Shown here: positions 4,400 through 57,775 of the stretch, in pieces
Numbering within the stretch: the stretch's first letter is position 1
Layout of the letters: each line of letters opens with the position of its first letter
Assembly (NCBI GenBank): GCA_965242545.1
Contig: OZ251456.1
Span: 21,146-85,145 of the forward strand
Length of the DNA stretch: 64,000 nucleotides
Source: a bacterium
GTDB lineage: Bacteria > UBA8248
Reading direction: 5' to 3'
Notes under the pieces: generated by a model
Seen by the model: the letters and a program-made list of their open reading frames with translations, nothing else
What the model was told of the DNA's origin: nothing
The model's database searches: none
Made by a program: the position numbers and the translations under genes

Positions 4400-4570
4400 C
4401 GACGCGATCCCCCGCGCCGAAAGGATGCCCCGCCCGCAGGGACAACCCTCCGTGGTTGTCCCGTTTTCATCGCGCCCGCCGGACGCGAAACGGGACGCAT
4501 ATATGCGTGGGACGCGCCCCTCGGCGCGTCACCTACGCAAAACCGCCGCCCGGTCAGCAGGGGTATTCCG
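4400..4570. repeat. palindromic intergenic repeat cluster (modules GGGACAACC-N-GGTTGTCCC and GGGACGCATATATGCGTGGGAC)
   Basis: First locus of a repeat family that recurs at 7.9-8.15, 10.0-10.18, 22.15-22.62, 23.14-23.76, 24.04-24.15 and 30.76-30.98 kb. Confidence 0.7.
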
Positions 4571-7440: not shown

Positions 7441-8148
7441 GATCGGGGTGGGGAGGATGACCAGCGAGGTTCCGTAGGGGCGATCTCTCCTCGGGCTTGC
7501 CCCACGGTTCGCGAACCGCCCGTTTGGGTGGGAAGGCGATCTGGGAGAGGAGATGACCGCGATCGGAGCGGCGGGAGGAGCTGACCGATCGGGGCCGGGA
7601 GGATGGCCGCGATCGGGGCGGGGAGGCGATCCGGCCGATCGTGTCTTATTCAGAAGAAATTCCCCATCTTTCGGCGTTTTTCGTTTTGAATCAATCGGTT
7701 ATGCGTTCGCAAAAGCTGCGTGAATTCGCCTGAAAACGCCTTGAATTCGTTTTGAATTTGCTCGATGGTATTTGAATTGAAAGGTTTTCGGTTCGACGGA
7801 AAAAGACGCCCTCTTGATCGCCAATCGGGCGTGTTTCGGCTCGAATGGTACCTTTTTCGCTTCTTTTCGGGATACCGCAAATGCGGGCAAATGCGCGCGC
7901 CGCCGCGTCGCCGCCGACCCACAATCGGGGCGCATGTCCGCGCCCCCTACAATCGGACGCCACCCCACCGTGGGGCGGGCCCGGGAAGGAACCGCCCCTG
8001 CGAAACCCGTCGCGCCGCCGGGCGTCCCGCGAGGACAACCACAGGGGGTTGTCCCTACGGCAATCCGCATCGTCGGCCAATTCACGACGCGCCGCGTCGT
8101 CAACAACCCGCGATCGGGGCGCGTATATGGCGCCCTCGGCGTATTCCC
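7441..8148. repeat. left copy of a ~0.7-kb inverted repeat: 25-nt tandem GATCGGGGCGGGGAGG... units, an AT-rich ~250-bp core, and palindromic modules
   Basis: The reverse complement of 7650-7900 is ~90% identical to 30990-31245. The outer 7585-7650 matches the reverse complement of 31250-31320. The inner palindromic modules 7900-8148 match 30700-30980. Confidence 0.75.
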
Positions 8149-9543
8149 CTAGAACCGCGCGAGGAGGCTCACGCTCCCGCCGACCTCCCTGTTCTCGCCG
8201 GCGGCGGAGAAGTCCACGGAACCCCGAATCTCGTATTTTCCCTCTGCCCAGGCGTGAACGCCCCCGGCCCGCAGCCGAACCCGGGACGCCTCGGCCCTCG
8301 CCTTCAGCCGCTCGCCCGAGACCCTCGCGCTCGTCCCCGCCGAGAAGTCGTGCTCGAAGCCGGCCGCCCCGAACAGACGACCCGCGCCCGTCCGCTTCTC
8401 CACGCTCACCCCCGCCGCGCCCGTGAACATCTCGCCGTCCTCGATCGACACCCGCGAACCCACCGAGTCCGTGAAGTCGTCCAGCGAGACAGAGGAATGA
8501 ACCAGCCGGACGCGCGGCGTGAACGTCAGCCCCCCGGATTCGACCCGGCGCCCCAGCTCGACGCCCGCCGCCCAGCCCGAACCCGACGCCCCCGTCTCCA
8601 GCGCGCCCCGCGCGTCGGAGTCCAGATCCGCCTCATACGCGGTCGCCTCGAGCTGGGCGTCCAGATAGAAGCCCCCGCCAAGCCCCACGGCGGCCGAGAC
8701 GCCCACGCCGCTGCCGCTCACCTCGATCTCCCCGCTCCCGTCCACCTTCGCCGAGCCTCGCCCGTGACGCGCCGAGAAGCCGAGCAGGGCGTTCGCGCCC
8801 AGGCTCACGTCCACGCCCACCCGGACGCCGTAGCGGTCGTATTCATACGTCACGCCCGTCTCGGAGGCGTCCGCCTCCCAGTCGCCGCTCGCGCCCTCCG
8901 CCCGCGCCCAGACGCCGCGCGGCGACCGCGGCGCGCTCATCCGCTCCTCATGCGAGAGCATCCCGTTCATCCTCAGCAGAACCGAGGGCAGCGCCTCGTA
9001 GAGCTCGCAGCGGCGATCCCGCGCCCGGACACAGGAAAACACCGAGAGGTCGAGCGTCGAGAGGTCGAGCGGCTCGTCCTGGTCCTCCACCTCGAAGGTG
9101 GCGCGGTCGGTGATATTCCCCTCCTCGTCCACGAGCTCGACCTTCACGGTCTCGGCGCCCTCGACGGAGCCGCCCACCCGCTCCCGGATCGCCTCGCCCA
9201 CGTCCTCCTCATCGTCCCGCACCCGCACCGTGAGATCCACCGTCTCGCCCTTGATAAGCGGTTCGTCCGGATCGTTGTGCTCGGACCGCTTCACTGTTCC
9301 CGTTTCTCCGACCGTTATTTCCGTGGGGACGCACGACTCAACGGTGCCTATCACCTGGCCGTGAATGATGATGGTCGACCTGGGCTTCTGACGCCGCTGC
9401 CCTTCCGGGCAGTCCTCCTGCGCCCGCGCCTCCCCGGCGGAAAGCGTCAGCGCCGCCAGAAGCGCGGCGAGGAGAGGGATTCCTCGTCTCGCGCCTTTTG
9501 AACCGGGTAAAGAGCGGTCGTCTCCGTACAATCGCTTTCTCAT
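8149..9543 (-). CDS. autotransporter (type Va) outer-membrane protein: signal peptide, short passenger, C-terminal beta-barrel
   Basis: The signal peptide is MRKRL...LLAALLAALTLSAGEARAQE. The C-terminal ~300 aa are homologous to the C-terminus of the giant protein at 24042..30692 (YEALPSVLL..ERMSAPRSPRG...VRLVHSSVSLDDFTD...AGVSVEKRT...). It ends in ...LLARF, an aromatic terminal residue typical of OMPs. Confidence 0.7.
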   Translation of the reverse strand: MRKRLYGDDRSLPGSKGARRGIPLLAALLAALTLSAGEARAQEDCPEGQRRQKPRSTIIIHGQVIGTVESCVPTEITVGETGTVKRSEHNDPDEPLIKGETVDLTVRVRDDEEDVGEAIRERVGGSVEGAETVKVELVDEEGNITDRATFEVEDQDEPLDLSTLDLSVFSCVRARDRRCELYEALPSVLLRMNGMLSHEERMSAPRSPRGVWARAEGASGDWEADASETGVTYEYDRYGVRVGVDVSLGANALLGFSARHGRGSAKVDGSGEIEVSGSGVGVSAAVGLGGGFYLDAQLEATAYEADLDSDARGALETGASGSGWAAGVELGRRVESGGLTFTPRVRLVHSSVSLDDFTDSVGSRVSIEDGEMFTGAAGVSVEKRTGAGRLFGAAGFEHDFSAGTSARVSGERLKARAEASRVRLRAGGVHAWAEGKYEIRGSVDFSAAGENREVGGSVSLLARF

Positions 9544-9731: not shown

Positions 9732-9801
9732 GTTGAGCGTTGAGCGTTGAGCGTTGAGCGTTGAGCGTTGAGCGTTGAGCGTTGAGCGTTGAGCGTTGAG
9801 C
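9732..9801. repeat. heptanucleotide tandem repeat (GTTGAGC)x10
   Basis: Perfect 70-nt array ~190 nt upstream of the autotransporter start at 9543. It lies between that gene and the cas9 remnant. Confidence 0.9.
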
Positions 9802-10138
9802 GCCTTTTCCCAGCCTAACCCCTCCCGCCTCGGGGCGCAAGGGGGCGTCGGGGACGCGGGGTTTCCGAACGCGGGAGAGAGGAAGATTCTCCCGCGCGCG
9901 GGCGACGGTTCAGGCATGAAAAGACGGGCCTCCTCGATGAGGGTCGAAAGCTCGCCGGCGGAAAGCGGAACCCGTCTCCGCGGCGAGTGAAAGCGACGAT
10001 TTGGACAAGGTTACGAAAATCCGCCTCGGGCGTCAATCCGCCCCCGGAAAAGCGGGCGGGACGGGGGAGGAACCCCGCGCCGTTCGGCGAACGGAGGCGG
10101 GGGCGTTCCGACGGCGGGGCGCATGTATGCGCCCCGTT

Positions 10139-10336
10139 TCGCGTCTGGCGGCGCGCCAGACGGGCGTCCCGCCTCTTGCGGTTCTTCGGCGTCTTGCTCT
10201 TCCTGTCCACCATCTCCTGAAACGCGCGGACGCCCATGGCTTCGAGGCGCGCCGGGTCGCCCGCCTCGTCCTCCTCGACGAGCGCCCAGCCGATGGAGTT
10301 GGGCCCCAGGTCGAGACCCAGCGTCATGCGAGGCAT
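10139..10336 (-). pseudogene. cas9: cas9 N-terminal remnant (RuvC-I motif plus the start of the arginine-rich bridge helix), truncated after 66 codons
   Basis: MPRMTLGLDLGPNSIGWALVEEDEAGDPARLEAMGVRAFQEMVDRKSKTPKNRKRRDARLARRQTR. The GLDLGxNSIGWA catalytic-Asp motif sits at residue 9, and the R-rich helix GVRxF...RRxARRxTR matches type II-C Cas9 N-termini. Homology stops exactly where the palindrome GGGGCGCATGTATGCGCCCC (10116-10135) begins; the rest of ORF 9815..10336 is repeat-derived nonsense. Confidence 0.55.
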
Positions 10337-10513: not shown

Positions 10514-10685
10514 GACCCCCTCCTCCGATTCCCTCCCGGTCAATCTCTCTCCGTCCGCGGGGGGACGCGGATGTGCGTCCCGCCTCTCCCGCGTGGTTGA
10601 AAACGGGCGGCCTTGCGGCCTACACTTGGACGCGCCGCCTCGCGGCTTCCCGGCAATCTATCGGCGACGAAAAGGAGGAGCGGAC

Positions 10686-11192
10686 ATGAGAAAATTCTTC
10701 GGTGGAGCGGCGGCGCTGCTGGCCGCCGCGGCCCTCGCTTTCGGCGCGGGGAGCGCCCTCGCCGCCGAGAGCGGCAGCTTCGAGTTCTACGAGAGCGCCG
10801 TCCACGACTATTCGACCATGAAGCACGCGGACGCGGACGTCACCGTCGGGCCCCTGCATGGAACGGCCACCATCGTCAAGAGCAGCGGCGGCCCCTTCAG
10901 GGAGGGCGCGAACTTCGGCGCGACGTGCCTCGTCTACGCGCGGAAGACGAAGAAGGGCGTCCACCTCGAGGCGCCCTGCTCGTTCACCGACGCGGCGGGC
11001 GACAAGCTCTGGCTGATCGCCCGAAGGAGCATGGGCGACATCCAGGTCGGCGGCGGGGGGCGGGGCGTCCAGCGCATCGTGGGCGGCACAGGCAAATACG
11101 CCGGGGTGACCGGAAACTGCCCCTACCGGACGGACTACCTGCCGGACAAGTGGCTCGTCTCCAAATCGACCTGCAGCTGGAGCAGGCCGTGA
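10686..11192 (+). CDS. secreted small Cys-containing protein, tandem paralog 1
   Basis: Signal peptide MRKFFGGAAALLAAAALAFGAGSALAAE. Four conserved Cys (ATCLVYARKT...APCSFTD...NCPYR...STCSW). SD GGAGGAG upstream. Confidence 0.6.
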   Translation: MRKFFGGAAALLAAAALAFGAGSALAAESGSFEFYESAVHDYSTMKHADADVTVGPLHGTATIVKSSGGPFREGANFGATCLVYARKTKKGVHLEAPCSFTDAAGDKLWLIARRSMGDIQVGGGGRGVQRIVGGTGKYAGVTGNCPYRTDYLPDKWLVSKSTCSWSRP

Positions 11193-11722
11193 TCGCGCGC
11201 GGAGCGAAGCGGAAGGCGGGGAAACCGCCCGGCGCGCTCCCGGCCGCCCTGGCGGTCGCCGCGGGCCTCGCCCTCGCGGCGGGAGCCGCCCTCGCCGCCG
11301 AAAGCGGGAGCTTCGAGCTCCACGAAACCTACGCTCCCGACCTGGCGACCATGAAGCACGCGGACGCCGAGATCACCGCGGGCTCCCTGCGCGGAGCGGC
11401 CGCCATCCTCGAAAGCGGCGGCGGCCCCTTCAGGGAGGGCGCGAACTTCGGCGCGGCGTGCCTCGTCTACGCGCGGAAGACGGAAAAGGGCGTCCGCCTC
11501 GAGGCGCCCTGCGCGCTCACCGACGCCTCGGGCGACAGGCTCTGGCTGCTGGTCGAAAAGCACGAGGGCGGCGTCCGGAACAACGGCGGGCGGGGCGTTC
11601 AGCGCATCGCGGGCGGCACCGGCAAATACGCCGGGGCGCGCGGAGAATGCGCCTATCGGTCGGAAACCCTGCCGAACGGACGCCTCGTCGTCCAATCGAC
11701 CTGCAGCTGGCGCAGGCCGTAA
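11189..11722 (+). CDS. secreted small Cys-containing protein, tandem paralog 2
   Basis: ~70% identical to paralog 1 (AACLVYARKTEKGVRLEAPCALTD...ECAYRSETLPNGRLVVQSTCSW). The GTG start overlaps the paralog-1 stop (GTGA). Confidence 0.55.
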   Translation: MIARGAKRKAGKPPGALPAALAVAAGLALAAGAALAAESGSFELHETYAPDLATMKHADAEITAGSLRGAAAILESGGGPFREGANFGAACLVYARKTEKGVRLEAPCALTDASGDRLWLLVEKHEGGVRNNGGRGVQRIAGGTGKYAGARGECAYRSETLPNGRLVVQSTCSWRRP

Positions 11723-17111: not shown

Positions 17112-18290
17112 TCAGCGCTCCGTCAGCTTCACGCGCCTGTTGTACCAGTTCATGAAGGCCGAGATGAGCAGGCTGATGACGAGATAGGTTGCCATCGTCA
17201 TCGCCATGATCTCGATTTCCTTGCCTGTCTGGTTCAGCGCGATGCCGGCGTAGACCGCGAACAGCTCGGCGAAGCCGACCGCGTAGGCCAGCGAGGAGTT
17301 CTTGGTGAGGTTCAGATACTGGCTCGTCAGCGGGGGGATGATCACCCGCATCGCCTGCGGAATGATGATGAGCCGCATGTTCAGACCGCGCCTGAGACCG
17401 AGGGCGCGCGCCGCCTCCGTCTGCCCCTTGTGGACCGCCAGGACGCCGGCGCGGACGATCTCGGAGATGAAGGCGCCGGTGTAGAGCGTCAGCGCGAGGA
17501 GGATGGCGATGAACTCGGGGCGGATCACCATGCCGCCCCGGAGGTTGAAGCGCGTCGCCCGGGGGTGGAGCAGCTCGACGGGCTGGCCCGCCAGAAAATA
17601 GGCCGCCAGCGGCAGGCCCGCCAGGAGGGCGAGCGACGCCCAGAAGACGGGAAACGTCTCGCCGGTCGCTTCCTGCCGGGCGCGCGCCCATCCGCGGAGA
17701 GCGACCGCCGCCGCCGCGGCCGCGAAAAGCGCCGCCGCCACCCACCAGAAGGCCGGCTGCGGGTCGGGCGCCGGGCCGAACAGGCCCCGGTTGTTCAGAT
17801 AGAAGCCGAACCGGGGAGCGTCCGCGCGGCTCCAGCGCGGCAGCCCCAGGAGGATCGCGTACCAGAAGATGATCTGGAGAAGCAGCGGGATGTTCCGCAT
17901 GAATTCGACGTAGCAGTAGACGATCCGGCTGAGCAGCCAGTTCCGGGAGAGCCGCATCATGGCGAGAACGAAGCCGAGCATCGTCGCCAGCGCGCAGCCC
18001 AGGCTCGACACCAGGAGCGTGTTCAGAAGCCCCACGAAATAGACGTCGAGAACCGGCGAGGTCGGCGAGTAGGGAATCAGGGTCAGCGGAATGTCGAAGC
18101 CCGCCGGCTGGGTGAGGAACCAGAAGCTGATCTCCTTGCCCAGGCTGCCCATGTTCCGCGCCGCGTTGTAGGTCAGCGCGAACAGGACGAGCACCGCCAG
18201 GCCGAAGACGAGCGTCTGCGCCAGAATCGACCGGAAGCGCAGGTCGGTCCAAATCGAATCGCGTCCCCCGGCCGCCGCCTCATTCGCCAT
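17112..18290 (-). CDS. amino acid ABC transporter permease (AapQ-like)
   Basis: 392-aa polytopic permease in the same operon. Confidence 0.75.
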   Translation of the reverse strand: MANEAAAGGRDSIWTDLRFRSILAQTLVFGLAVLVLFALTYNAARNMGSLGKEISFWFLTQPAGFDIPLTLIPYSPTSPVLDVYFVGLLNTLLVSSLGCALATMLGFVLAMMRLSRNWLLSRIVYCYVEFMRNIPLLLQIIFWYAILLGLPRWSRADAPRFGFYLNNRGLFGPAPDPQPAFWWVAAALFAAAAAAVALRGWARARQEATGETFPVFWASLALLAGLPLAAYFLAGQPVELLHPRATRFNLRGGMVIRPEFIAILLALTLYTGAFISEIVRAGVLAVHKGQTEAARALGLRRGLNMRLIIIPQAMRVIIPPLTSQYLNLTKNSSLAYAVGFAELFAVYAGIALNQTGKEIEIMAMTMATYLVISLLISAFMNWYNRRVKLTER

Positions 18291-18430
18291 TGCGCCCGCC
18301 TCCGTCAGGGAAGCCCCCTTCCGCCCGAGCCGCGAGCGTCAAAAAAAGGGCGGGGCATTCCGGCTCGCGTCGTCATGCCCCGCCCCTCGAGCCTGTTCCG
18401 TGAAAGGAGGGCTCCCCGCTTCCCGAGCGG

Positions 18431-19447
18431 CTACCGGAACGGCGGCGCGTAGAGGATGCCGCCCCTGCTCCAGAGCTGGTTCAGGCCCCGCTCGAGTCCG
18501 ATCTTCGTTTTGGGGCCGATGTGGCGCTCGAAGATTTCGCCGTAGTTGCCGACGGCCTTGATGGCGCGCGCCGCCCAGTCCTTGGGCAGACCCAGCATCT
18601 TGCCGTATTCGCCCTCGGAGCCGAGGAGTCGGCGCACTTCCGGATCCTTCGAGGCCGTCATCATGGCGTCGGCGTTCGCCGCGGTGACGCCCTTCTCCTC
18701 CGCGATGATGATCGCGTTCAGCACCCAGCGCACGAGGTCGCCCCACTGGTTGTCGCCGTGGCGAACGAGCGGGCCCAGGGGCTCCTTCGAGATGATTTCC
18801 GGCAGGATGGCGTGCGCCTTCGGGTCCTTCAGAACGGCGCGGGTCGAGGCCAGGCCGGAGGCGTCCGTCGTATAGACGTCGCAGCGGCCCGCCTCGTAGC
18901 CGGCGCGCGCCTCGGCGTTCGTCTCGATGGTGATCGGCTCATACTTCATGCCGTTCGCGCGGAAGAAGTCCGCCAGGTTCAGCTCCGTCGTCGTGCCCGT
19001 CTGGATGCACACCGAGGCGCCGCCCAGCTCCTTCGCCGACTTCACGCCCAGCGCCTTGCGCACCATGAAGCCCTGGCCGTCGTAGTAGTTCACGCCGGTG
19101 AACTCGAACTTGAGGTTCACGTCGCGCGAGAACGTCCACGTCGTGTTGCGGGAGAGCAGGTCGATTTCGCCGGCCGCCAGCGCCGGGAAGCGGTTCTTGG
19201 TGGTGAGGGGCGTGAACTTCACGGCCTTCGGGTCGCCCAGCGCGGCGGCGGCGACGGCGCGGCAAACGTCCACGTCGAAGCCCCGCCACTCGCCCTTGTC
19301 GTCGGGGGCGGCGAAGCCGGGCAGGCCGGTCGAGACGCCGCAATTCAGCGATCCGCGCTTCTTCACGTCGTCCAGCGTGCCGGCGAGCGCGGCGCCCGCC
19401 GCGCAGAGCGCGAACGCCGCCGCAAGCGATGCAACGATTTTTCTCAT
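18431..19447 (-). CDS. amino acid ABC transporter substrate-binding protein (AapJ-like)
   Basis: Signal peptide MRKIVASLAAAFALCAAGAALA, followed by a periplasmic binding-protein fold. Confidence 0.8.
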   Translation of the reverse strand: MRKIVASLAAAFALCAAGAALAGTLDDVKKRGSLNCGVSTGLPGFAAPDDKGEWRGFDVDVCRAVAAAALGDPKAVKFTPLTTKNRFPALAAGEIDLLSRNTTWTFSRDVNLKFEFTGVNYYDGQGFMVRKALGVKSAKELGGASVCIQTGTTTELNLADFFRANGMKYEPITIETNAEARAGYEAGRCDVYTTDASGLASTRAVLKDPKAHAILPEIISKEPLGPLVRHGDNQWGDLVRWVLNAIIIAEEKGVTAANADAMMTASKDPEVRRLLGSEGEYGKMLGLPKDWAARAIKAVGNYGEIFERHIGPKTKIGLERGLNQLWSRGGILYAPPFR

Positions 19448-19756
19448 CTCTCCCTCTCCTCTCGATTGTGAGGCGCTGCGAACGGATTTGCGCGAATCCT
19501 CCCGTCGGGGAGGCGTGTCCGCGCTCTTCTCCCGACCCCGCGGCCGGAACAGGAAATTCCGGATCCTTCTCCATCTTCGGCCTTTGACGATGAAGTCGAT
19601 TCACTCTTATTCACGATGCGCGAAAATGTCAACAGGCGAACGGGGCGGGCGCGCCTCCGTCTCCCGTCCCGTCCCCGGTTTTCTTTCCCGAACGCCCCGT
19701 CGGTGGTATGAATGGTTCCCGTCTTCTGAGGAACCACTCGCGGATGAGGGCGCTTC

Positions 19757-20989
19757 GTGAATCCCCGCGGCGCCGTTCGCCTTCATCCGCCCGCTCCGGG
19801 AGCGCGCATGAACGCAGGCGGCGGCGTCCTCGTCCTCGCGTCGAGCCACGCGGTGAACTCCGTCTACAACCGGATGCTCACGCCCATTCTCCCGCTCATC
19901 ATGGCCGACTTCGGCCTGAACTACGCCCAGACGGGGCTCATCGCCTCCGCCTACGCCCTCTCGAGCAGCCTGTTTCAGTGGCCAATCTCCTTTCTGGGCG
20001 ACTTCACGGGGAGAACCCGTCTCATCCTCGCCCTCTCCCTGCTCTTCAACGCCCTGCCCGCCGGGTTCTACGGCGGCTCGACCACCTACGCGGGGCTGCT
20101 CGCCCTGGTCTTCCTGAGCGGGCTGGGCTGCTCGGCCTACCACCCGGCGGCGGTCTCGATGATCGCCCGCGAAAGCCCCGAAAGCCGGGGATTCGCCATG
20201 GGCCTCTTCAAGGCGGGCGGCGACTTCGGCAGCATCCTGACGCCGGCGATCATGAGCTGGCTCACGGTGCATCTGGCGAGCTGGCGCGCCGCCTCGCGGT
20301 ATTTCGCGCTGCCGGGAATCGTCTGCGCCCTCGTCGTCTGGCTGAGGTTCCGGGACGCGCCCGGGGCGCGGACGTCGATGGCGAAGGAGGCGAGGTCCAC
20401 GGCGCGCGAACTGCTGAGCGACAGGTTCATGATCCTCATCACCCTGCTCTCCTCCTGCCGGGTGATGGGCCTGCGGGGCATCATGACGTTCCTGCCCCTG
20501 CTGCTGGCGGAGGGGCTGGGGCTGGACACCATCGGGGTCGGCTGGGCGATCACGGGCTATTTCCTCGTCGGCACGGCCTTCGCCGTCTTCTGGGGAAAAT
20601 ACGCGGACGGAAAGAGCGAGACGCGCCTCCTCCTCGTCATGATGGCGTCGAGCGCCCTCGCGCTCGCGTTCCTCTCTCGCGCCGAGTCGACCGTCGTCTC
20701 CCTCGGTCTGCTGGCGCTTCTGGGCGCGGGGCTGAACCCCTCGCAGAGCCTCATGCTCGCCCTCGCCACGGGCGAGGTGCGGGAGAAGAACCGCGCGAGC
20801 GCGGTCGGCCTCATGTACACGGCGAACGAGGCGGCCTCGGTCGCCTCGCCCTTCCTGGGCGGCCTCATCGCCCAGGCGGCGGGTCTGAGGGAGTCGTTCC
20901 TGTTCTACGCCCTGCTCTGCCTCGCCGCCACGGGCCTCGCCTGGCTCATCCACGCGGATCGGAAACGACGGGAGAGGGCGAAGCCGTGA
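19757..20989 (+). CDS. MFS transporter
   Basis: ~12 predicted TM segments and MFS-like loop motifs. Start uncertain (alternative ATG ~19808). Confidence 0.6.
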   Translation: MNPRGAVRLHPPAPGARMNAGGGVLVLASSHAVNSVYNRMLTPILPLIMADFGLNYAQTGLIASAYALSSSLFQWPISFLGDFTGRTRLILALSLLFNALPAGFYGGSTTYAGLLALVFLSGLGCSAYHPAAVSMIARESPESRGFAMGLFKAGGDFGSILTPAIMSWLTVHLASWRAASRYFALPGIVCALVVWLRFRDAPGARTSMAKEARSTARELLSDRFMILITLLSSCRVMGLRGIMTFLPLLLAEGLGLDTIGVGWAITGYFLVGTAFAVFWGKYADGKSETRLLLVMMASSALALAFLSRAESTVVSLGLLALLGAGLNPSQSLMLALATGEVREKNRASAVGLMYTANEAASVASPFLGGLIAQAAGLRESFLFYALLCLAATGLAWLIHADRKRRERAKP

Positions 20990-22149
20990 CGTCGGGAACG
21001 CGGCGCGCTCTCCCGCTCATCGTCTGCCTCGCCCTGGGCGCGTGCGGAGCGGCGGGCCGCGGCGCCCCACCGGCCGAGTCCCGCGCCCGCCTGAAGCCGC
21101 CCTTCGACCTCCCGAAGCCGCGCGGCGCGAAGGGGAGGCACGGGCGCGAAGAAGCCCCCTGCGGCGCGCCTCCCCCGCCCGTCCGCGACCTGACCTTCGG
21201 GGGCTTCTACGCCGGGGGGAGCGGCTCGTCCGTCATCGACCCCGCCGCGATGCGCCGCTACCGCGCGGCGCGCGCCCCCGTCCGCTCCTTTCAGCGCGCC
21301 CTCCTCGCGCGAACCGACCGCTACGTCGAGACGCGCCGCCCCCGCACCGCCGCCTGCGCGCTGGCGTGGCTCGACCGCTGGGCGCGCGCGGGCGCCTTTC
21401 TGGGCCGGGTCAGCCGGCAAGGGGGCTACGAGCGCAAATGGGCGCTCGGGGCGGTCTCGATGGCCTATCTCAAGGCGCGCGGCGCGAGCGGACTCGACCC
21501 CGCCCGGAAAAAAGCGGTCGAGCGGTGGATCGGCGAATGGGCGCGGGTCGTCCACGCGGACTACGCGGATCCGGCCAAATCCCGCCGGACGAGCCGCAGG
21601 AACAACCACGCCTATTGGGCCGCCTGGTCGGTCGGACTCGCCGCCGTCGTCCTCGACGACCGGAGCCTCCTCGACTGGGCGATGACGCGCTACCGCCGCG
21701 CCACGCGCCAGATAACCCCCGAGGGCGTCCTGCCGCTCGAACTCGCGCGCGGCTCCAAGGCGCTTCACTACCACCTCTACGCGGCCGCCGCGCTGGTGAT
21801 GCTCGACGAGCTGGGCGCGCGCAACGGATACGCGGCGGGCGGCGCCGCGCTCGGGCGGCTCGTCCGGCTCGTCGTCGCGGGCCTTTCGGACCCGGCGTTT
21901 TTCGTCCGCAGGACCGGAAAGCGGCAGAACTGGGTGGGACGCCTCGACGGCTCGAAGCTCGCCTGGATGGAGCCCCGCTACGCCCGCCGCCGGGAGCCCG
22001 CGCTCGCGCCCTGGATCCGCAGATTCCGCCCCATGAGGAGCCGGCTCCTGGGCGGCGACGCGACGCTGCTCTACGGCGCGCCCCTCCCGCCCCGCCGGGG
22101 CGCGGTTCGCGGGAGGCTTCCTCCCCGGAAACGCCCCCCAAGCCGCTGA
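20986..22149 (+). CDS. alginate lyase family (PL5-like) lipoprotein
   Basis: The GTG start overlaps the MFS stop (GTGA). Has a lipobox LIVCLALGAC, and an RRNNHAYWAAW motif resembling the NNHSYW motif of AlgL-type lyases. Confidence 0.5.
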   Translation: MTSGTRRALPLIVCLALGACGAAGRGAPPAESRARLKPPFDLPKPRGAKGRHGREEAPCGAPPPPVRDLTFGGFYAGGSGSSVIDPAAMRRYRAARAPVRSFQRALLARTDRYVETRRPRTAACALAWLDRWARAGAFLGRVSRQGGYERKWALGAVSMAYLKARGASGLDPARKKAVERWIGEWARVVHADYADPAKSRRTSRRNNHAYWAAWSVGLAAVVLDDRSLLDWAMTRYRRATRQITPEGVLPLELARGSKALHYHLYAAAALVMLDELGARNGYAAGGAALGRLVRLVVAGLSDPAFFVRRTGKRQNWVGRLDGSKLAWMEPRYARRREPALAPWIRRFRPMRSRLLGGDATLLYGAPLPPRRGAVRGRLPPRKRPPSR

Positions 22150-22620
22150 ACCACCCCGCCTTTGGTCGCCGAACGGCGCGGGACGCATGTAGAAGAACGC
22201 CGCGGAGACGCCCCCGTGGCCGTCCCCTACAATGGAATATCGCCACCCTCGCCGTAGGGGGCGCATATATGCGCCCCGATTGTAGGGTTGGCGACGATGC
22301 GGATTGCCGTAGGGACAACCCCCTGTGGTTGTCCGTTGTCAACGGCGCGCGCCGGTCTGGTTTTCACCGCCGGGACGTTGCGCCCGTAGGTGAAGCGCCA
22401 AGGGGCGCTTCCCACACATACATGCGCCCCGGTTGTGGAATTGCCGACGATGCGGCGCGGACAACCACAGGGGGTTGTCCCTACGAAGGCGGAATCACCA
22501 CCGGCCCGCAGGGGTGGTTCCTTCCCGGGCCCGCCCCACGGTTCGCGGCGGCGCGCCCGCCCGTGTTCGCCGAACGGCGGGGGCATTGCCGTTCCGTCGG
22601 CGATTCGGTATGATCGCGCG
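22150..22620. repeat. palindromic intergenic repeat cluster (modules A-E)
   Basis: Contains GGGGCGCATATATGCGCCCC, GGACAACC-N-GGTTGTCCCTACG (twice), and CACCGCCGGGA-N-CCGTAGGTGAAGCGCCAAGGGGCGCTTCCCACACATA. Confidence 0.7.
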
Positions 22621-22658
22621 GCGATAATGAGGATCAACCGAATGGAGACGCGCCGGAC

Positions 22659-23138
22659 ATGACGGACTACGAGAAGCTCAACCTTGTCATCGCCTTTCTC
22701 GCGCTGATCGCCTCCTACGGCGGTCTGGCGCTGCTCTACTACGGCATCCGCCAGATGGATCGGGGGAGCGCGCGGCGGGCGGCGGAGTCGAAGCGCCAGC
22801 ACGAGGAGACGATGACCGCGCTCGCCGAGGAGCGGGAGGAGGCCCGGAGCCGGCACGAGGAGGCGATGCGGAAGATCGCCGAGGATCAGGAGGCGTCGCG
22901 GAAGCGGCACGAGGAGGCGATGGCCGCGCTCGCCGAGGAGCGGGAAGCCTCCCGGAAGCGGCATGACGAGGTGATGGCCGAATCGGAGAAGCGGCACGAG
23001 GAGGCCATGCGCAAGCACGACGAGGCCATGCGGAAGCACGACGAGGGGGCGGAGGAATCCAAACGCCGGCACGAGGAGAGCATGGCCGCGCTCACGGAGC
23101 TCATCAAGCGGACGGGAAACCCGCAGAAGCCCTCGTAG
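22659..23138 (+). CDS. small membrane-anchored coiled-coil protein with RHEEAM heptad-like repeats
   Basis: An N-terminal TM helix (LVIAFLALIASYGGLALLYY) followed by ~7 degenerate copies of (K/R)RHEEAM(R/A). Confidence 0.45.
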   Translation: MTDYEKLNLVIAFLALIASYGGLALLYYGIRQMDRGSARRAAESKRQHEETMTALAEEREEARSRHEEAMRKIAEDQEASRKRHEEAMAALAEEREASRKRHDEVMAESEKRHEEAMRKHDEAMRKHDEGAEESKRRHEESMAALTELIKRTGNPQKPS

Positions 23139-23139
23139 G

Positions 23140-23760
23140 GACACAACCCCCCGTGGTTGTCCTTCATCATGTTCGTATCCCGCAGATACCCGAACCGCCC
23201 GCCTTTGGTCACCGAACGACGCGGGACGCATGTATGCGTCCCCTACGGCGAGGGTGGCGATATTCCTTTGCAGGTGACGCGCGGGAGCGCGTCCATACAT
23301 GCGCCCCGTCGTGAATTGGCCGCCGGCGCGGATTGCCGTAGGGACAACCCCCCCGTGGTTGCCCGTTGTCAACGATCCGGGCGGTTCCGCATCGGAAACG
23401 CCCCGCAATTCACGAACCGTGGGGCGGCCCCGGGGAGGGGTTGCCCCTGCGCAAAAACAAAACCGCCGCCCTGCCTTGTTCACCGCCGGGATATTTCACC
23501 CGTAGGTGAAGCGCCAAGGGGCGCTTCCCACACATATATGCGCCCCGCATGTGGAATTGGCGATGACGCGGCGCGGACAACCACGGGGGGTTGTCCCTAC
23601 GGAACCGACAAACCCGCATCACCCCGAACGGCGCGGCACCTGCGCAAAACAAAATCGTCGTCCGTCCGTGGTCGCCGGATGGATATTGCGCCCGTCCGCG
23701 CGGGACGCATATATGCGTCCCCTACAAAACCGTTGCCCGGCGCGGGTGTGAATTTTCATC
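23140..23760. repeat. palindromic intergenic repeat cluster
   Basis: GGGACGCATGTATGCGTCCC, GGGACAACC-N-GGTTGCCC, GGGGCGCATATATGCGCCCC and GGACGCATATATGCGTCCCCTAC, the same modules as at 22.2 kb. Confidence 0.7.
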
Positions 23761-23923
23761 TTGCGCGGGGGTTGAACTTCGCCAACTCTTTTTGTTACAA
23801 TGGCGGTCATCATCGGTTTTGACGCGGGACTCGAACGAAACGGGAATCGACCGCTTACAAAGGGGGCAGCGCACATGAGCATGTTCAGCTTGTCCGCGCC
23901 TTGGGATTTGGGGCATACTGGCG

Positions 23924-24023
23924 CCGACTCACCGACTCACCGACTCACCGACTCACCGACTCACCGACTCACCGACTCACCGACTCACCGACTCACCGAC
24001 TCACCGACTCACCGACTCACCGA
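23924..24023. repeat. octanucleotide tandem repeat (CCGACTCA)x12.5
   Basis: Perfect 100-nt array immediately 5-prime of the giant autotransporter gene's ATG at 24042. It lies within the TTG-initiated ORF 23901. Confidence 0.9.
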
Positions 24024-24041
24024 CATGAGAAGGGGCGCGCG

Positions 24042-27000
24042 ATGAGAACGCCGGACGGCGCGGGACGCAACTATGCGTCCCCTACAAAATCGTCGCCGCC
24101 CTGTTTCCGTAGGGGGCGCGGACAACCACGGGGGGTTGTCCCTACGGATATAAAACCGGCATGGGGGCGGCTGGCGGGGCTTCTCGCCGGCTTGGCGCTG
24201 GCGGGGCTGCTGCTGGCGCCGGGGGAGGCGCGGGCGCAAGCCCTTCTATGCGGGAACTCGAACAACGTCCGCTTGGACTGCCCGAATCGGGATTATCCCG
24301 ACGGCATCGTCTATGGCATCGCGGGCGACAGCAGCAATATCAGCCACGGCATCCCCCAGACGCTCAACCTCCTGGGCCACAGTTCCGGGCCGATCACGCT
24401 CACGGCCGGCGCCCGGGGGGTCGCCTTCGGCGCGCGAGCCAGCGGAGGGGCAGGCCTCACGTTGAACATCGGCGGCGCGACGGGCGGGACCGCCCACGTC
24501 GTCAGATTCGTCCAGGGGACGAACTCGGTCTCCGGCATCGACCGGAACAACGGCATCTATGTTTGGCGTACGGCCAACAACACCGGCGCGAGCACAACGC
24601 TGAACGTGAAAGCCGGTGTGACCATCGGCACGATGGCCACGCCGATGAAGCAGCACGGCATCTTCCTCCGCCCGCACGCCGACCGCCCCTCCGCTGGCCG
24701 GGGCAGCGCCGGCCTCACCCTCACCAGCGCGGCGACCATCCATGCCGCCCGGCAGGGCATTCGGATAGTCCGGCAGACCGGGGGCACCAACGACGCGACC
24801 ACCGTCACCAACACCGGCGCCATCCACTCGGGCGTCGGCAACGCCGCCGCCACCGGCAGCTACGTCGACCGGCCGCACGGCATCTACGCGCTGCATGGGG
24901 GGACGCAGAGGACCGGCTCGCTGACCGTCACCAACTCGGGCGACATCACGGTGGGGGGCGCCTACACCGGCATCCTGATGAACTACTGGGGCGCCGGCGC
25001 CCTGAGCCTCGACAACCGCGGGGACATCGCCGCGGCGACGGGGCAGACGGCGAAGCAGGGCATCCAGTTCAACTACAAGTACTGGGACAACCAGAGCGCC
25101 CAGGCCATCACGCTCACGAACTCCGGCGACATCACGGCGTCCGAGTTCGGCATCCGGCTCACGAAGCTCTCGGGCGGCGCGGTCGAGCTCACGAACAGCG
25201 GCGCCATCACGGTGACGGGCGACGCGGCGCAACACGCGGGGCACGCCATCTATCTGGCGGAGGGCGTCACCTTCGGCGAGGGCAGAACCTACGCCGCCAA
25301 CGGCGGCGCCCTCACGGTCGACAACAGCGGTGTCCTCAGCTCGAAGAACCACGCCCTCTACGTCTACCTGGCCACGGCGGACGACGACGTCGAGCTCGAG
25401 AACAGCGGCGACGTCGTCTCGGAGGAGGGGGACGGCATCCGGATCGAGCGGGTCGTCGAGGGCGACGTCGCGGTCGAGAACAGCGGGAGCGTCTCGGGGA
25501 AGGGCCACGGCATTTACGTGGGCCAGGCGGCGCGGATCGACTTCGAGCAGTCGGGGTCGGGGACGATCAGGGGCCGGACGGGGGTCTATCTCGGTGTCGC
25601 GAAGGAGAGCGCGTCGGGCGACTCGCGCAGCACGGACAGCGGCGGGGATCACATCCCCGCGATCGACGTGACCTGGTCGGGCGGGAGCGTGGCGCGGGGG
25701 CCGGCGACGACGGGCGCCCGCTTCACGGCGACCACCTGGCTGGAGACGTCCGTCGCCGACCGGGAGGCGACGGTGGTGAAGTCGGTGGAGGATTCGCTGC
25801 GCTGGGGGGCGGCGGCGGGTCTGGAGGCGCGCGTCCTGTCCTGGCGGGCGGTGATGGAGCAGGTGGCGGCGGGCGACGATCCGGGCGTGATAGCGAACGC
25901 GGCGGCGCAGACGACGCTGCTGGCGACGAGCGGGGCCGGTTCGCGCCGGGCGACCATCCTGGCGCAGGTCCGGGCGATGCTGGGGAACGATGACCTCTCG
26001 GTGGGGACGGATCTCCTCACCGCCATCGACTCGACGGCGACGAGCGTGAGCGACCTGAGCGACGCGGAGATCGCGACCTATCTGACCCAGGACGCCCCGG
26101 ACATCCGGATCATTCTGCGGAACATCCTGCGTTACGGCCTCTCGGCCGCCGAGAAGGCGGTTCTGGCGGCGGTCGTGGCGGGGGACGGCACGGCGCTCAC
26201 CACCGCGCTGGCCGTCACGACGCCGGCCGCCTTCTCCTCCGCCTACAAGACGGCGGTGACCGGGCTGCTGTCCCGCTACAACCTGGACGACGTCAGCGTC
26301 AGCATGACGGGCGGCGAGATCGCCTCGCGCGGCGACGGCATCCGGGCCTATTACGCGACGGCGAACGACAGCAACGGGAGCGTGGAGATCACCATCGGCG
26401 CGAACGCGGCCGTGGAGGGAGACGTCCACGGGATTCACGTTTCGGGCGGCGGGGTGAACGCCTCCAGCGTGAAGCAGCAGCGCGTCACCGTGAACGGGAG
26501 GGTGACGGGCGGGACGGGGGCGGGCGTTCACCTGGTGGGCGGGGGGACGGTGACGGTGGGCGCGGGCGGGCGCGTGGGCGCGACCTCGGGCACGGCCATC
26601 GAGACCTCGGACGGCGGCGATCTGACGGCGGCCATCTCCGGGCGGGTGGAGGGGGACATCCGGGCGGCGGGGACGCTGACGCTCACCTCGGCGGCGGGGA
26701 GCGTGATCACGGGGACGGTTCACGACCCCTCGGGTTCGCTGTCGGTGGCGGGGAGCATCGGGCGGATCGTCTATACGAGCGGGGGGACGGTGACGGTGGC
26801 GGCGGCGGGCCGGCTCACGGGGGTGTCGGGCGAGGCGGTTCGCAGCGACTCAGGCGATTTGAGCGTGACCATCGCCGGGCGGGCGACGGGCGACGTTGAG
26901 GCGGGGGGCAGCGGGAACCTGACCCTGAGCCTCACCGGGAGCGGGCGGCTGGACGGCGACGCCGAGGCGGGGGGGACGCTGACGCTGACGGCGGCGGCGG

Positions 27001-30000
27001 GGACGGTGATCACGGGGACGGTTCACGACCCTTCGAGCGCGTTCACGACGGTGTCGGGGAGCATCGGGCGGATCGTCTATACGAGCGGGGGGACGGTGAC
27101 GGTGGCCGCGGCGGGCCGGCTCACGGGGGCGTCGGGCGAGGCGGTTCGCAGCGACGCGGGCAACCTGAGCGTGACCATCGCCGGGCGGGCGACGGGCGAC
27201 GTTGAGGCGGGGGGCAGCGGGAACCTGACCCTGAGCCTCACCGGGAGCGGGCGGCTGGACGGCGACGCCGAGGCGGGGGGGACGCTGACGCTGACGGCGG
27301 CGGCGGGAACGGTGATCACGGGGACGGTTCACGACCCTTCGAGCGCGTTCTCCACGGTGTCGGGGAGCATCGGGCGGATTCTCTACACGAACGGCGGGAC
27401 GGTGGCGGTGGCCGCGGCGGGCGCTTTGACGGGGGTTTCGGGCGAGGCGGTTCGCAGCGACGCGGGCAACCTGAACGTGGACGTCTCGGGCCGGGCGGGG
27501 GGCGACGTCATCGCCAACGGCGGGGGCGATCTGGACCTGGACGTGCTGGGTTCGGGGCGGGTCGAGGGTGACGTCAAGACCTCGGGCGGGGGCGACCTGG
27601 ACGTCTCCCTGGCCGGCACCGGGCGGATTGACGGCGACGTGCGCGCCCAGGGCGGGGGCGACCTGACGCTCGCCTCGGCGGCGAATACCGTCATCACGGG
27701 CACGGCCTACGACCCGACGGGCGCGCTGTCGGTGGCGGGGAGCGTCGGACGGATTCTCTATACGAACGGCGGGGACGTGACGGTCGCATCGGGGGGCGCC
27801 CTGACGGGCATCGATGGCGTGGCCGTCCGCAGCGCCGCGGGGAACCTGGACGCCGACGTCGCCGGGCGCGCGGGAGGCGACGTCATCGCCAACGGCGGGG
27901 GCGATCTGGACGTGGACGTCTCGGGTACGGTCGCGGGCGACGTTCTGGCGAACGGCGGCGGCGACCTGACGGCGGACCTCACCGGGACCGGGCGGGTGGA
28001 AGGCGATATCCGGGCCTCGGGCGGGGGGACGCTGACGCTGACGGCGGCGGCGGGGACGGTCATCACGGGGACGGTTTACAGTCCCGCGAGTCCGTTCACG
28101 GTGTCGGGGAGCATCGGGCGGATTGTTTATACGAACGGCGGGACGGCGACGGTGGCCGCGGCGGGCGCCCTGACGGGGGTCTCGGGCGAGGCGGTTCGCA
28201 GCGAGGCGGGGGACTTGAGCGTGACCGTCGCCGGGCGCGCGGGAGGCGCCATCCTGGCGAACGGCGGGGGCGACCTGACGACGGACGTCTCGGGGACGGT
28301 CGAGGGCGACGTTATCGCCTCGGGCGGGGGCGACGTGGAGGTGGACGTCACGGCCGCCGGGCGGATCGAGGGAGACGTTCGCGCCGAGGGCGGCGGGATG
28401 CTGACGCTGACGGCGGCGGCGGGGAGCGTCATCACGGGGACGGTCTACGGCCGCCCCGCGGGCGCGTTCACGGTGGAGGGCAGCATTGGACGGCTGGTCT
28501 ACGCGAGCGGGGGCGAGGTGACGGTCGCCGAGGGCGGCGTCCTGACGGGGGTGGATACCGGGGACGGCATGGAGGTGATTCGGAGCGAGGCGGGGGATTT
28601 GAGCGTCACGGTGGCCGGGCGGATCGGGGGCGGCATCCGCTCCGCGGGCGGCCTGGACGTCACGATAACGAGCGCGGCGCCGGGCGACCTCCGCGCGGGC
28701 GGCGACATGACGGCGGATATATCCGGGACGGTCGAGGGCGACCTGGACGCCGGCGGCGATTTGACGGCGACGATCACCGGGGAAGTCGAGGGCGACCTCG
28801 CCGCCGGGGGCGACATGACGGCGGAGATTTCGGGAACGGTCGAGGGGAGCGTCCGCGCGGGCGGGGCCGTGACGGCGGAGCTCTCCGGGCGGATCGAGGG
28901 CGACCTGGACGCCGGCGGGGCGCTGGCGCTGACGGCGACGTCGGGGAGCGTCATCGCGGGCACGCTTCGCGGCCCCGGGGGCGCGTTCACGGTGAGGGGG
29001 AGCATCGGGCGGATCCTTTACCGGGGGGCGGGGACGGTGACCGTGCCCGAGGGCGGCGTTCTGACGGGCGTGGATACCGGGGACGGCATGGAGGTGATTC
29101 GGGGCGAGGCGGGGGACTTGAGCGTGGTGGTGGCCGGGACGGTGGGGGGCGGCATCCGCTCCGCGGGCGGCCTGGACGTCACGATAACGAGCATGGTGCC
29201 GGGCGACGTTCGCGCGGGCGGCGACGTGACGGCGGACGTCTCCGGGACGCTGACCGGCGACCTGGACGCCGGGGGCGACATGACGGCGGATATCACCGGG
29301 ACGCTGACGGGCGACGTGGTCGCCGGGGGTGATTTGACGGCGGATATTTCGGGGACGGTTGACGGGAGCGTCCGCTCCGGGGGCGACCTCACGGCGGTGA
29401 TCACCGGGATGGTGACGGGCGACGTGGAGGGACCGGGCGCGGGCGATCACACCGTGACGGTCTCGGCGGGGGCGGTGGTGACGGGAACGGTTCACCTGGC
29501 GGCCTCCACCGTGCGGGTGGACGGGACGGTGGGCGGGGTGCGCTTCCGGCGGGGCGGAACCCTCACCATCGGGCCGAACGGGCGGATACTGGCGGGCGAA
29601 GGGGTGGCGATACGCAACGACCGGGGCGCGCTGACGGTGACGATAGAGGCGGCCCCGGGCGAGCGGCCCGAGGAGAGCGTCGCCCGGGTGGAGGGGACGG
29701 TGGTGGACCCGGGCGGGAACGAGCGGGCGCGGACGCTGACCCTCCTCTCGACGGACGGGCAGACGGCCGAGCTGAGCCTGGACCTGGAGGGGCGGATCAG
29801 GAGCGGCCTGCCCCCGCGCGCGAAGGTGTATGAGGCGCTGCCCTCGGTTCTGCTGGGCATGAGCCGCCCGCTCTCCTACGGGGAGCGGCTGAGCGCGCCG
29901 CGCTCGCCCCGGGGCGCCTGGGCGCGGGTCGAGGGCGCGAGCGCCAGCTGGAAGGCGGTCTCCTCCGCCTCGGACGCGGAATACGACATGAAGCGCCACG

Positions 30001-30699: not shown

Positions 30700-31410
30700 A
30701 CGCGAAAACGCGAATCGACCGGGCGCGGGGAACGGCGAATCACGCCCCCGCGCCCGGTTTTTTGCGCGGCAAAACGGGACGCATATATGCGTCCCCTACG
30801 GGCCGGGGGTGGCGTCATCCAATTGTAGGGGGCGCGGACACCCGCCCCGCACCTGCGCGTCACCTACCCCCTACGCAAAACCGCCGCCCTGTTTCCGTAG
30901 GGGGCGCATATATGCGCCCCGATTGTGGGACGGCGACGACGCGGCGCGGACAACCACGGGGGGTTGTCCCTACGGAAACAAAATTCCCCGCGCGCATTTG
31001 CCCGCATTTGCCGTCGCCCGAAAAGAAGCGAAAAAGGTACCATTCGAGCTGAAACGCGCCCGATTCCCGATCAAAAAGGCGTCTTTTTCCGTCGAACCGA
31101 AAATCTTTCAATTCAAATACAATCGAGCGAATTCAAAACGAATTCAAGGCGTTTTCAGGCGAATTGACGCAGCTTTCAGGAACGCATAACCGCTTGATTC
31201 AAAACGAAAAACGCCGAAACGCGGGGAATTTTATCTGGATAAGACCCGATCGGGCGGATCGCCCTCTCGCCCCGATCCCGGCCATTCTCCCGGCCCCGAT
31301 CTGCCATTCCGCCGCGCCGGGGTCGGCTCATCCTCTCCCCGCTCCGATCGGCCCCTCCACCGGGAGTGGTTTCCCCCTCGCCCCCGAAGCCCGGATCCCG
31401 ACCATCGCTC
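30700..31410. repeat. right copy of the ~0.7-kb inverted repeat (see 7441..8148)
   Basis: 30990-31245 is ~90% identical to the reverse complement of 7650-7900. It includes palindromic modules and 25-nt GATCGGGGC... units. Confidence 0.75.
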
Positions 31411-53895: not shown

Positions 53896-53998
53896 GGAGA
53901 ATCCTCTGTCCGGGTTTTCGCGTGTTCACGAAGCGGGGGGAATGCTATCATCCGGCTTGTTCCATGAAAATCGACGAGGCTTTGTCGTGGAGAAAACC

Positions 53999-54368: not shown

Positions 54369-54440
54369 GGGGGTGAATCGGGGTGGTGAAAGATCCATCA
54401 CCGATCTTCAAATTGCGAATAAGGATAGGATAGAAGAAAC

Positions 54441-55607: not shown

Positions 55608-55711
55608 AAAAATGCTGTTTTCGAAACGCGCGCATCGTTGGAGCGTTCAAGGGCTTTAATGAGCGCGGCTTTGAGTTTGCGGCTGAAATTATTGCCCCGT
55701 ACGACGCTGGA

Positions 55712-57679: not shown

Positions 57680-57715
57680 CGCTTGGCGCTCTATATGTCT
57701 CCTCGCTCGTTTGAC

Positions 57716-57775
57716 GGGCGCGGCGCTTTCCCGTGGAAACGGGCGGAGAGGACATTTACTTCATCCCGTCCGTCG
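57716..57775 (+). repeat. direct repeat copy 2 (island boundary)
   Basis: See 54303..54368. It duplicates the Rieske 3-prime coding end but without a proper stop. Confidence 0.7.

Follow-up and report, generated by a model that had tools for sequence, protein, structure and literature searches.

Probable GTAG-tagged repetitive extragenic palindromes form dimers and mosaic clusters in a 64-kb chromosomal stretch of a UBA8248 bacterium

Repetitive extragenic palindromes (REPs) with a terminal GTAG have been described in 24 published families (Di Nocera, De Gregorio and Rocco 2013, PMC3733652). They have stems of 6–13 bp and coexisting families with complementary stem variants, and they are found as dimers with the tags outside or inside, in clusters, downstream of open reading frames (ORFs), as in-frame intragenic copies and in association with REP-associated tyrosine transposases (RAYTs) (PMC3733652). 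A 64,000-nt stretch of DNA from a bacterium of the lineage UBA8248 (contig OZ251456.1, positions 21,146 to 85,145; the whole stretch is here called the window and numbered from its first letter) harbours clusters of small palindromic repeats that are very probably REPs of this kind, of the type handled by RAYTs and arranged as dimers and as mosaics resembling bacterial interspersed mosaic elements (BIMEs). With the GTAG-tagged superfamily they share the tag at one end, the short stem-loop, the coexisting families, the complementary stem variants, the dimers, the clusters, the location at 3' ends, the occasional in-frame copy in a gene and the RAYT association, and they differ from it in that the clusters are unusually dense and heterogeneous.

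Among the transposases, TnpA_REP subclass 2.4 is characterised by the motifs NH[IFV]H, WQ and YIxNNP and a length of ~194 aa, and is listed from 'Cyanobacteria, Bacteroidetes and various phyla' (Quentin et al. 2018, PMC6006769). Its REPs are of the canonical long type with three GC pairs at the stem foot, with double-foot forms, REPs are present in frame between HuH and Y, and the patchy distribution was put down to horizontal transfer (PMC6006769). RAYT genes carrying the B hairpin of the window (defined below) have the signature of this subclass together with flanking long REPs, double-foot forms and a patchy spread over many phyla, whereas the window shows REPs alone, without a REPtron.

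The REPs and BIMEs of E. coli are likewise GTAG-headed, imperfect palindromes of alternating orientation with conserved linkers, forming mosaic clusters at the 3' ends of genes, and the E. coli RayT (YafM) is an HUH/Y1 enzyme recognising a single-stranded hairpin together with its tag. Compared with these, the stems in the window are different, shorter and without bulges, and the A unit is a perfect palindrome. In the Pseudomonas systems of Bertels and Rainey, inverted REP doublets forming hairpins (REPINs) constitute a long hairpin that is the replicating unit, with the transposase in low copy and the REPINs in many, while the doublets of the window are mostly heterodimers of different REP families; REPIN-RAYT systems are described as vertically inherited, in contrast to the hairpins of the window, which are common to many phyla. 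Classical miniature inverted-repeat transposable elements (MITEs) such as Correia/NEMIS and ERIC are also small non-autonomous intergenic repeats with inverted termini, sometimes co-transcribed or in frame, but the units of the window have no target-site duplication, are far smaller and GTAG-tagged, and have a Y1/HUH partner instead of a DDE enzyme.

Anatomy and arrangement of the units

The modules were named and placed in a preliminary description of this DNA, and both held when they were counted in the window, which is chromosomal DNA of 63–74% GC with ordinary genes, and compared with 100 dinucleotide-preserving shuffles. The counts were far above the shuffle expectation, with 10 sites of the A palindrome GGGRCGCATRTATGCGYCCC at ≤3 mismatches (0.07 expected), 6 of the B hairpin GCGGACAACCACRGGGGGTTGTCCCTACGG (0 expected) and 4 of the D module CGCCTTTGGTCRCCGAACG (0.07 expected), and the 37-nt C module has two exact copies. 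A search for headed hairpins gave ~20 strict units, all within 4.4–31 kb, and altogether ~25 units are found at seven places in 27 kb (4.44–4.54, 7.93–8.13, 10.07–10.15, 22.15–22.55, 23.13–23.73, 24.06–24.15 and 30.77–30.98 kb). No Rfam family reaches its gathering threshold for the repeats of the window.

When analysing the modules it was found, which had escaped the preliminary description, that every one of them is a hairpin with a one-sided GTAGG tag. A unit of 24–28 nt consists of the 5' GTAGG followed by a GC-rich stem of 8–10 bp with a loop of 4–6 nt, and there are at least three families: A (stem GGRCGCAT/ATGCGYCC, unit GTAGG-GGRCGCAT-ATAT-GCGYCC), B (stem GACAACC/GGTTGTC, unit GTAGG-GACAACC-CCCYGT-GGTTGTC) and C (stem GAAGCGCC/GGCGCTTC, unit GTAGG-TGAAGCGCC-AAGG-GGCGCTTC, then the right half of A). 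GTAGG is present on exactly one side in 18 of the 21 A, B and C cores and one further core has GCAGG; by family, it is next to 7 of the 9 A cores, 8 of the 9 B cores (with GCAGG at the remaining one) and all 3 C cores, the background being 293 occurrences of GTAG/CTAC in the 64 kb.

The loop of B is asymmetric and always reads CCCYGT from the tag side, and since this polarity is constant relative to the tag, whole units are truly inverted. Both orientations occur, and singletons, tandem runs in the same orientation and both types of dimer are present, tag-outward for example at 30897–30973, 23502–23600 and 22386–22484 and tag-inward at 22207–22277. Three clusters share a conserved linker from A to B, GATTGTGG(G/A)A..GCGACGACGCGGCGC, and two share the tag-inward linker GGCGAGGGTGGCGATATTCC. 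The 'shuffled order' first ascribed to the modules is right in so far as they recur in varied order, but this order is not random, the units forming oriented dimers with conserved linkers; the limited set of linkers between REPs that is a feature of BIMEs is thereby present, while strict alternation is not kept as tandem runs exist. The units are located as follows.

Cluster 1, 4436–4536, between convergent gene ends: a tag-outward dimer, folding z = -5.2
4436–4462 (+): B-type hairpin with a GCAGG head
4476–4536 (-): C-type composite GTAGGTGACGCGCC..GGCGCGTC with the right half of the A palindrome
Cluster 2, 7927–8058 (-), downstream of the autotransporter gene 8149–9543 (-): tags all on the minus strand
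7927–7950 (-): A'
7967–8002 (-): GCAGGGGCGGTTCC-type
8033–8058 (-): B
~8108–8136: degenerate untagged A copy, neighbouring cluster 2
Cluster 3, 10074–10151
10081–10099: D-like module
10116–10135: untagged A palindrome
10562–10581: isolated untagged A'-like palindrome GGGACGCGGATGTGCGTCCC
Cluster 4, 22150–22545, after the alginate-lyase-domain gene (stop at 22149) and before the promoter-like site of a small gene
22157–22175: D
22207–22234 (-): degenerate GACGGCC-type
22254–22277 (+): A
22309–22336 (+): B
22386–22431 (+): C composite
22459–22484 (-): B
22507–22542 (+): GCAGGGG..-type
Cluster 5, 23135–23725: the stretch 23496–23606 folds as a tag-outward doublet
23135–23160 (+): B'
23200–23218: D
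23223–23246 (-): A
23270–23308 (+): C' with a GCAGG head and half of A
23338–23364 (+): B
23413–23451 (-): GCAGGGG..-type
23502–23547 (+): C composite
23575–23600 (-): B
23702–23725 (-): A
Cluster 6, 24062–24147 (-), in frame in the 5' end of a giant gene
24062–24085 (-): A
24120–24145 (-): B
Cluster 7, 30774–30975, at the 3' end of the giant gene, distal to a terminator-like hairpin
30774–30799 (-): A
30825–30848 (+): A'
30897–30920 (+): A
30948–30973 (-): B

Folding, proposed earlier as a check, gave stable hairpins with z-scores from -2.2 to -5.2. As single strands the tag-outward doublets form an outer CCGTAGG/CCTACGG stem around two hairpins (z -3.5 to -5.2); 30893–30979 folds as a REPIN-like doublet (z = -4.4) and, as in 23496–23606, the outer stem is GTAGG/CCTAC but the partners come from different families, and the sole indel observed comprises one unit. 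Across genomes the pair 8–21 of the A stem is seen as AU, UA, GC and CG with 100% pairing.

The units are mostly placed downstream of gene ends, convergent ends included, and the promoter-like sites of the region (22586–22614 and 23772–23801) are both outside the clusters. Up to nine units of at least four families are packed in 600 nt. An intrinsic-terminator-like hairpin with a T-run (~30722–30765), read directly from the sequence, precedes cluster 7; the units of the window lack T-runs and none is terminator-like, and terminators were rejected as their identity on this account. Neither the module counts nor the headed-hairpin search gave a comparable unit in 31.4–64 kb, and the absence reported earlier thus stands in spite of 12 intergenic intervals of ≥40 nt in this part; of the intergenic intervals, 5 of 14 carry units in the first half and none of 12 in the second half (p ~0.03 by a one-sided Fisher test, our own arithmetic).

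The same hairpins and RAYT genes in other genomes

The preliminary description had named confinement to this window as what would tell against a repeat family, and the B and A hairpins were found in many other genomes. When the tagged B hairpin, GTAGGGACAACC N4-8 GGTTGTCC, was scanned against a collection of species-representative genomes it was present in at least 117 stretches, with an estimated ~5 chance matches in 596 Gb. Among the matches listed there are ~70 assemblies, whose labels cover no fewer than 15 phyla (a count of record titles), such as Nitrospirota, Nitrospinota, Latescibacterota, Poribacteria, Chloroflexota, Clostridia, Bacteroides, WOR-3, Zixibacteria and groups of the candidate phyla radiation (CPR). 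An assembly often holds several B hairpins, the polarity relative to the tag never differs, and a second hairpin ending CCTAC often follows. Tagged A-type palindromes of the form GGGNCGCATATATGCGN'CCC are found in 14 of the listed B-hairpin loci, and the CGCATATATGCG palindrome is also found in distant phyla with the same tag polarity. Judged by their names, many of the metagenome-assembled genomes (MAGs) carrying the hairpins appear to be co-resident symbionts.

The close relative is represented by two loci (L034 and L099) of the MAG chromosome OZ241326.1, with 70% GC, of which 4.2 kb is syntenic with 17905–22091 of the window at 86% nucleotide identity. The same families are found there in clusters of different composition, with at least 20 units in 16 kb. 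The homology ends with the alginate-lyase gene; beyond it the relative has an SLT-rlmN block and the small gene in an inverted copy, the start of the giant gene being ~100 kb away. The ends of synteny and the differing composition of the clusters indicate that the clusters coincide with rearrangement boundaries and turn over quickly.

In loci selected by the hairpin, four RAYT-like ORFs were identified by tblastn with E. coli RayT followed by an iterated hidden Markov model (HMM); the E. coli enzyme is distant from the RAYTs of these loci (tblastn E 1e-7 to 1e-9 for two of them). The RAYT gene of L049 has doublets on both sides and one inside (1034–1106), and in L069 (7320–7407) and L110 (3060–3145) a full doublet, consisting of GTAGG-hairpin, linker, GACAACC hairpin and CTAC, comes shortly after the HUH motif, in frame. 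The RAYT stop of L069 has an A-like palindrome 45 nt behind it, and the start of the L110 gene is abutted by a B hairpin. Three RAYT genes that were retrieved independently of the hairpin (L119–L121) are bordered by B and related GTAGG hairpins or contain them, and in L121 an ATAT-cored palindrome is located 50 nt past the stop; the A-type palindromes following the RAYT stop in L069 and L121 are ATAT- or AGATCT-cored. In L120 (1413–5009) one of the three, P0011, is embedded in a type I restriction-modification operon, with the methylase gene, whose stop it overlaps, on one side and the specificity gene on the other.

Searching for proteins similar to the L069 enzyme brought up 790 relatives, annotated with PF01797 and carrying JGI names like 'REP element-mobilizing transposase RayT', and NCBIfam NF047646 (REP_Tyr_transpos) was the best family for all 5 of the 5 proteins tested, 2 of them above the cut-off. 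The proteins show the signature of subclass 2.4 (NH[IFV]H, WQ, YIxNNP, ~190 aa and REPs between HuH and Y), and a comparison of motifs, as distinct from the profiles of the authors of that classification, suggests that they fit this subclass. The loop following HUH contains from zero to several hairpin translations among the relatives, for example VGDGPRAVP, VGTGPRACP and GQPQGVVPT. The number of in-frame REPs varies among the RAYT homologues P0001–P0118, as already reported for subclass 2.4 (PMC6006769); P0012, for instance, has three GPCAVP units in tandem and P0066 has none. A literature search for the peptide GQPQGVAPT gave no match.

To these were added 80 metagenomic RAYT loci chosen by protein motifs alone (LWQR[SN][FY]Y[DE] and F.[VIA]MPNH.H). 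Inside the gene there are 2.9 GT[AG]G-headed hairpins per kb, within 300 nt of it 1.7 and farther out 0.2, giving a density near the gene of 9–15 times the background, and 73 of the 80 loci have at least one hairpin inside or adjacent. The exact B hairpin was found inside the RAYT gene in three more of these loci (L123, L125 and L128). None of the 80 is from the lineage of the window, and the high-GC ones have other stems.

Mobility, mechanism and competing explanations

Several gene boundaries of the window are affected by the units. Cluster 6, which had not been recognised as lying within a coding region, is an in-frame insertion of A and B of ~105 nt (35 codons) between the start codon ATG at 24042 of the giant gene and the core of its signal peptide; the start and first seven codons have a homologous counterpart in the relative OZ241326.1, where the insertion is missing. 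The TAG stop of the small gene (23136–23138) lies inside the GTAG tag of the B-type unit 23135–23160. A minus-strand ORF from 10336 matches residues 13–78 of the Cas9 N-terminus (E = 1.9e-10) and the homology stops at ~10127, inside the A palindrome 10116–10135, so that a repeat copy does mark the truncation point of cas9, as first described. This remnant (10127–10336, minus strand) encodes ~70 residues with a RuvC-I motif and is most similar to Neisseria-type Cas9 structures; the downstream part of the gene is deleted with repeat units in its place, and no cas1, cas2 or array was seen nearby.

When comparing the 3' flanks of the two autotransporter paralogues, a clean difference of 41 nt with one B unit was found (~30945–30985), without a target duplication at this indel, and a further difference of ~72 nt has its junction at the centre of an A-type palindrome. 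A half copy of A is seen repeatedly at junctions (4492–4511, 22414–22431, 23294–23308, 23530–23547, 10116–10135 and 30825–30920). The insertional or recombinogenic activity that had been suspected is borne out by the unit-sized indel without target duplication, the breaks in synteny with the relative and the truncation of cas9.

As the features agree with the definition in PMC3733652 and the transposases fit subclass 2.4, the repeats of the window are most probably REPs of a known kind; they were previously undescribed in this lineage, the kind of element itself being well known. By analogy with the work on E. coli RayT (PMC3733652), the units would fold as hairpins in single-stranded DNA, for example on the lagging-strand template, and a RAYT-type HUH/Y1 enzyme encoded, now or formerly, elsewhere in the genome would bind the hairpin and its GTAG foot, cleave and rejoin. 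Such cleavage and rejoining would multiply the units and build dimers and clusters, and the palindrome clusters would then be hot spots for deletion and rearrangement, as in the truncation of cas9 and the breaks in synteny.

There are also observations that fit poorly with REPs mobilised by such an enzyme. No RAYT gene was found in the window or in the 16 kb of the relative, by tblastn with E. coli RayT and the iterated HMM, and it could be that the cognate RAYT of this genome has been lost; transposition by a RAYT-type enzyme in this genome is something we infer by analogy. The A unit is a perfect 20-bp palindrome, and strengthening the palindrome of an E. coli REP abolished cleavage by RayT (PMC3733652). 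Most dimers join different families and not identical REPs, and the units are bunched regionally instead of evenly distributed, with none in the second half of the window, a restriction to 4–31 kb that is left unexplained by the REP/RAYT interpretation. The cas9 end, the half-A of every C composite and the 72-nt difference all have their junction in the middle of the A palindrome, whereas RayT is reported to cleave at GTAG, so that its cleavage does not account for them; hairpin or cruciform breakage may be the cause.

The units might instead be structural elements selected by the host and not currently mobile, for example stabilisers of mRNA 3' ends, attenuators or sites for nucleoid proteins or gyrase. 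Their placement after coding regions, the stability of the hairpins, the lack of a RAYT locally and the structural roles reported for E. coli REPs would all agree with this. Against it stand the absence of T-runs and of any terminator-like unit, the position of cluster 7 beyond the T-run hairpin that resembles a real terminator, and the composition of the clusters, which is wholly different in the two 86%-identical genomes in spite of conserved flanking genes and fits turnover better than purifying selection. We consider this unlikely as a full account, and as it concerns a secondary use it would be compatible with an origin by RAYT.

Another explanation is that the repeats are MITEs derived from a DDE-type insertion sequence, with terminal inverted repeats mobilised in trans and leaving target-site duplications. 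The termini of the tag-outward doublets of 80–110 nt are indeed inverted (CCGTAGG...CCTACGG), their folding gives long hairpins, and insertional polymorphism is present in the paralogous flanks, but what was gained or lost there is a single 41-nt hairpin segment lacking a target duplication. The units of 24–28 nt occur as singletons, tandems and both dimer types, they end with the GTAG/CTAC that marks REPs as a class, and the associated genes encode Y1/HUH RAYTs and not DDE transposases, all of which makes this origin very unlikely. From the preliminary proposal of a 'REP or MITE-like family' the REP-like part is therefore retained, on the strength of the tag, the stem-loop, the dimers, the 3' location and the link to RAYT, while a MITE with terminal inverted repeats and target-site duplication is not.

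It had also been suggested that the AT-cored palindromes could be operator sites of a dimeric transcription factor, the clusters then being regulatory regions. The dyad of A is perfect over 20 bp and its CGCATATATGCG core does not vary, the symmetric changes at its pair 8–21 would also fit a dimer touching both half-sites, and some copies are located upstream of genes (22254 and 23702). The one-sided GTAGG tag makes the units polar, however, they are distal to both promoter-like sites, and most of them follow the 3' ends of genes, convergent ends included. Moreover, A travels with the unrelated hairpins B and C through conserved linkers, is found in frame within a coding region and has the same palindrome beside RAYT genes in distant phyla. 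With several families of polar units recurring across phyla the operator suggestion is abandoned as highly improbable. Remnants of a degenerated CRISPR array of the truncated cas9 locus, to which the palindromic nature of the repeats and the cas9 fragment abutting one unit might point, were rejected and have practically no probability, given several repeat types in both orientations with irregular spacing at seven separate places up to 20 kb from cas9, the same units in genomes and positions unrelated to CRISPR, and no Rfam match.

With the repeats taken as GTAG-tagged REPs, a further step may be proposed tentatively, and we regard it as possible though rather doubtful: that a REP-RAYT system spreads horizontally, seeded by REPs inside the RAYT gene, and that the centre of the A palindrome is a preferred point of breakage and rejoining. 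The in-frame doublet of the RAYT gene reads in translation as ...VGDGPRAVP...GQPQGVVPT..., and if the proposal holds, each horizontal transfer of a RAYT gene would deliver ready-made seed REPs. This would explain the near-identical GTAGG-GACAACC hairpins and CGCATATATGCG palindromes across at least 15 phyla, in contrast to the model of vertically inherited REPIN-RAYT systems, and a joint at the AT-rich centre of A would truncate genes, here cas9, and reshuffle clusters. Seeding by REPs within a transferred RAYT gene is compatible with the observations, not demonstrated by them.

A 'dialect' of REPs common to many phyla with subclass 2.4 RAYTs bears on the question of vertical or horizontal inheritance of REP-RAYT systems. 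For annotation, REPs would account for ~2 kb of puzzling non-coding DNA in the window and for oddities of its gene boundaries, namely a stop codon supplied by a repeat, an in-frame insertion of 35 codons within a signal peptide, a truncated cas9 and broken synteny. The window may further serve as a compact example of how REP clusters are built up and turned over between genomes of 86% identity.

Neighbouring genes and other sequence features

The genes bordering the clusters and the small gene are the following.

Ending at 22149: alginate-lyase-domain gene
22659–23138 (+): small gene whose membrane protein has a single pass and RHEEAM-type repeats of 18 residues, no Pfam match
Ending at 30692: giant autotransporter-like gene
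8149–9543 (-): paralogous autotransporter gene, on the other strand

The small gene has repeat clusters on both sides, as noted from the beginning; its internal repeats are of 54 nt, and it is bounded by REP clusters without being part of the repeat system. The protein family to which its product belongs has no annotation; its members cross the membrane once, contain RHEE(A/T)M repeats of 18 residues and have a conserved ...L(T/R)ELI(K/E)RTG at the C-terminus. Members were found in L099 (541–996) and L202–L205, with four paralogues on one 3.09-Mb contig of a relative, and homologues are also present in Nitrospinae and other MAGs. The possibility that a RHEEAM-type gene is a passenger of the REPs was rejected, since in Nitrospinae it is located between rpe and ffh with just one or two REPs nearby.

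The best protein relative for the window is 77% identical. Neither a known plasmid nor carriage by phage was retained as an explanation, a plasmid search with 11 kb of sequence giving just generic ABC-transporter similarity (~80%, alphaproteobacterial replicons) and 2.9 million viral contigs giving one match.

The C-terminus of the giant gene is paralogous to the autotransporter beta-domain gene 8149–9543, and its region 26540–29540 has internal tandem repeats with periods of 54, 306 and 369 nt and only a weak bactofilin-like match in Pfam. Between the promoter-like site and the start of the giant gene an octamer, (CCGACTCA)n, is repeated in tandem in ~12–13 perfect copies (23924–24025), with ~16 copies at the equivalent place in the relative (L034, ~3133–3265); it looks like a leader of variable length and is possibly phase-variable. 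A heptamer, (GTTGAGC)n, is present in ~10 copies at 9732–9800, ~190 nt upstream of the start of the gene 8149–9543 (-), so that both paralogues have a short tandem repeat upstream. Downstream of both is a non-coding, AT-richer segment of 331 nt (7569–7899 and 30989–31319, inverted), which is 89% identical between the copies and thereby better conserved than the adjoining coding parts (73–75%), and which has no Rfam match.

Beside the cas9 remnant, 10708–11540 contains a direct duplication of ~300 nt with a spacing of 533 nt and 83% identity, its ORFs being without Pfam match. Finally, ~3.9 kb at 53896–57801 has a GC content of 0.57–0.58, compared with 0.63–0.74 elsewhere, contains no ORF with the high third-position GC bias seen in the rest of the window and is possibly foreign DNA.

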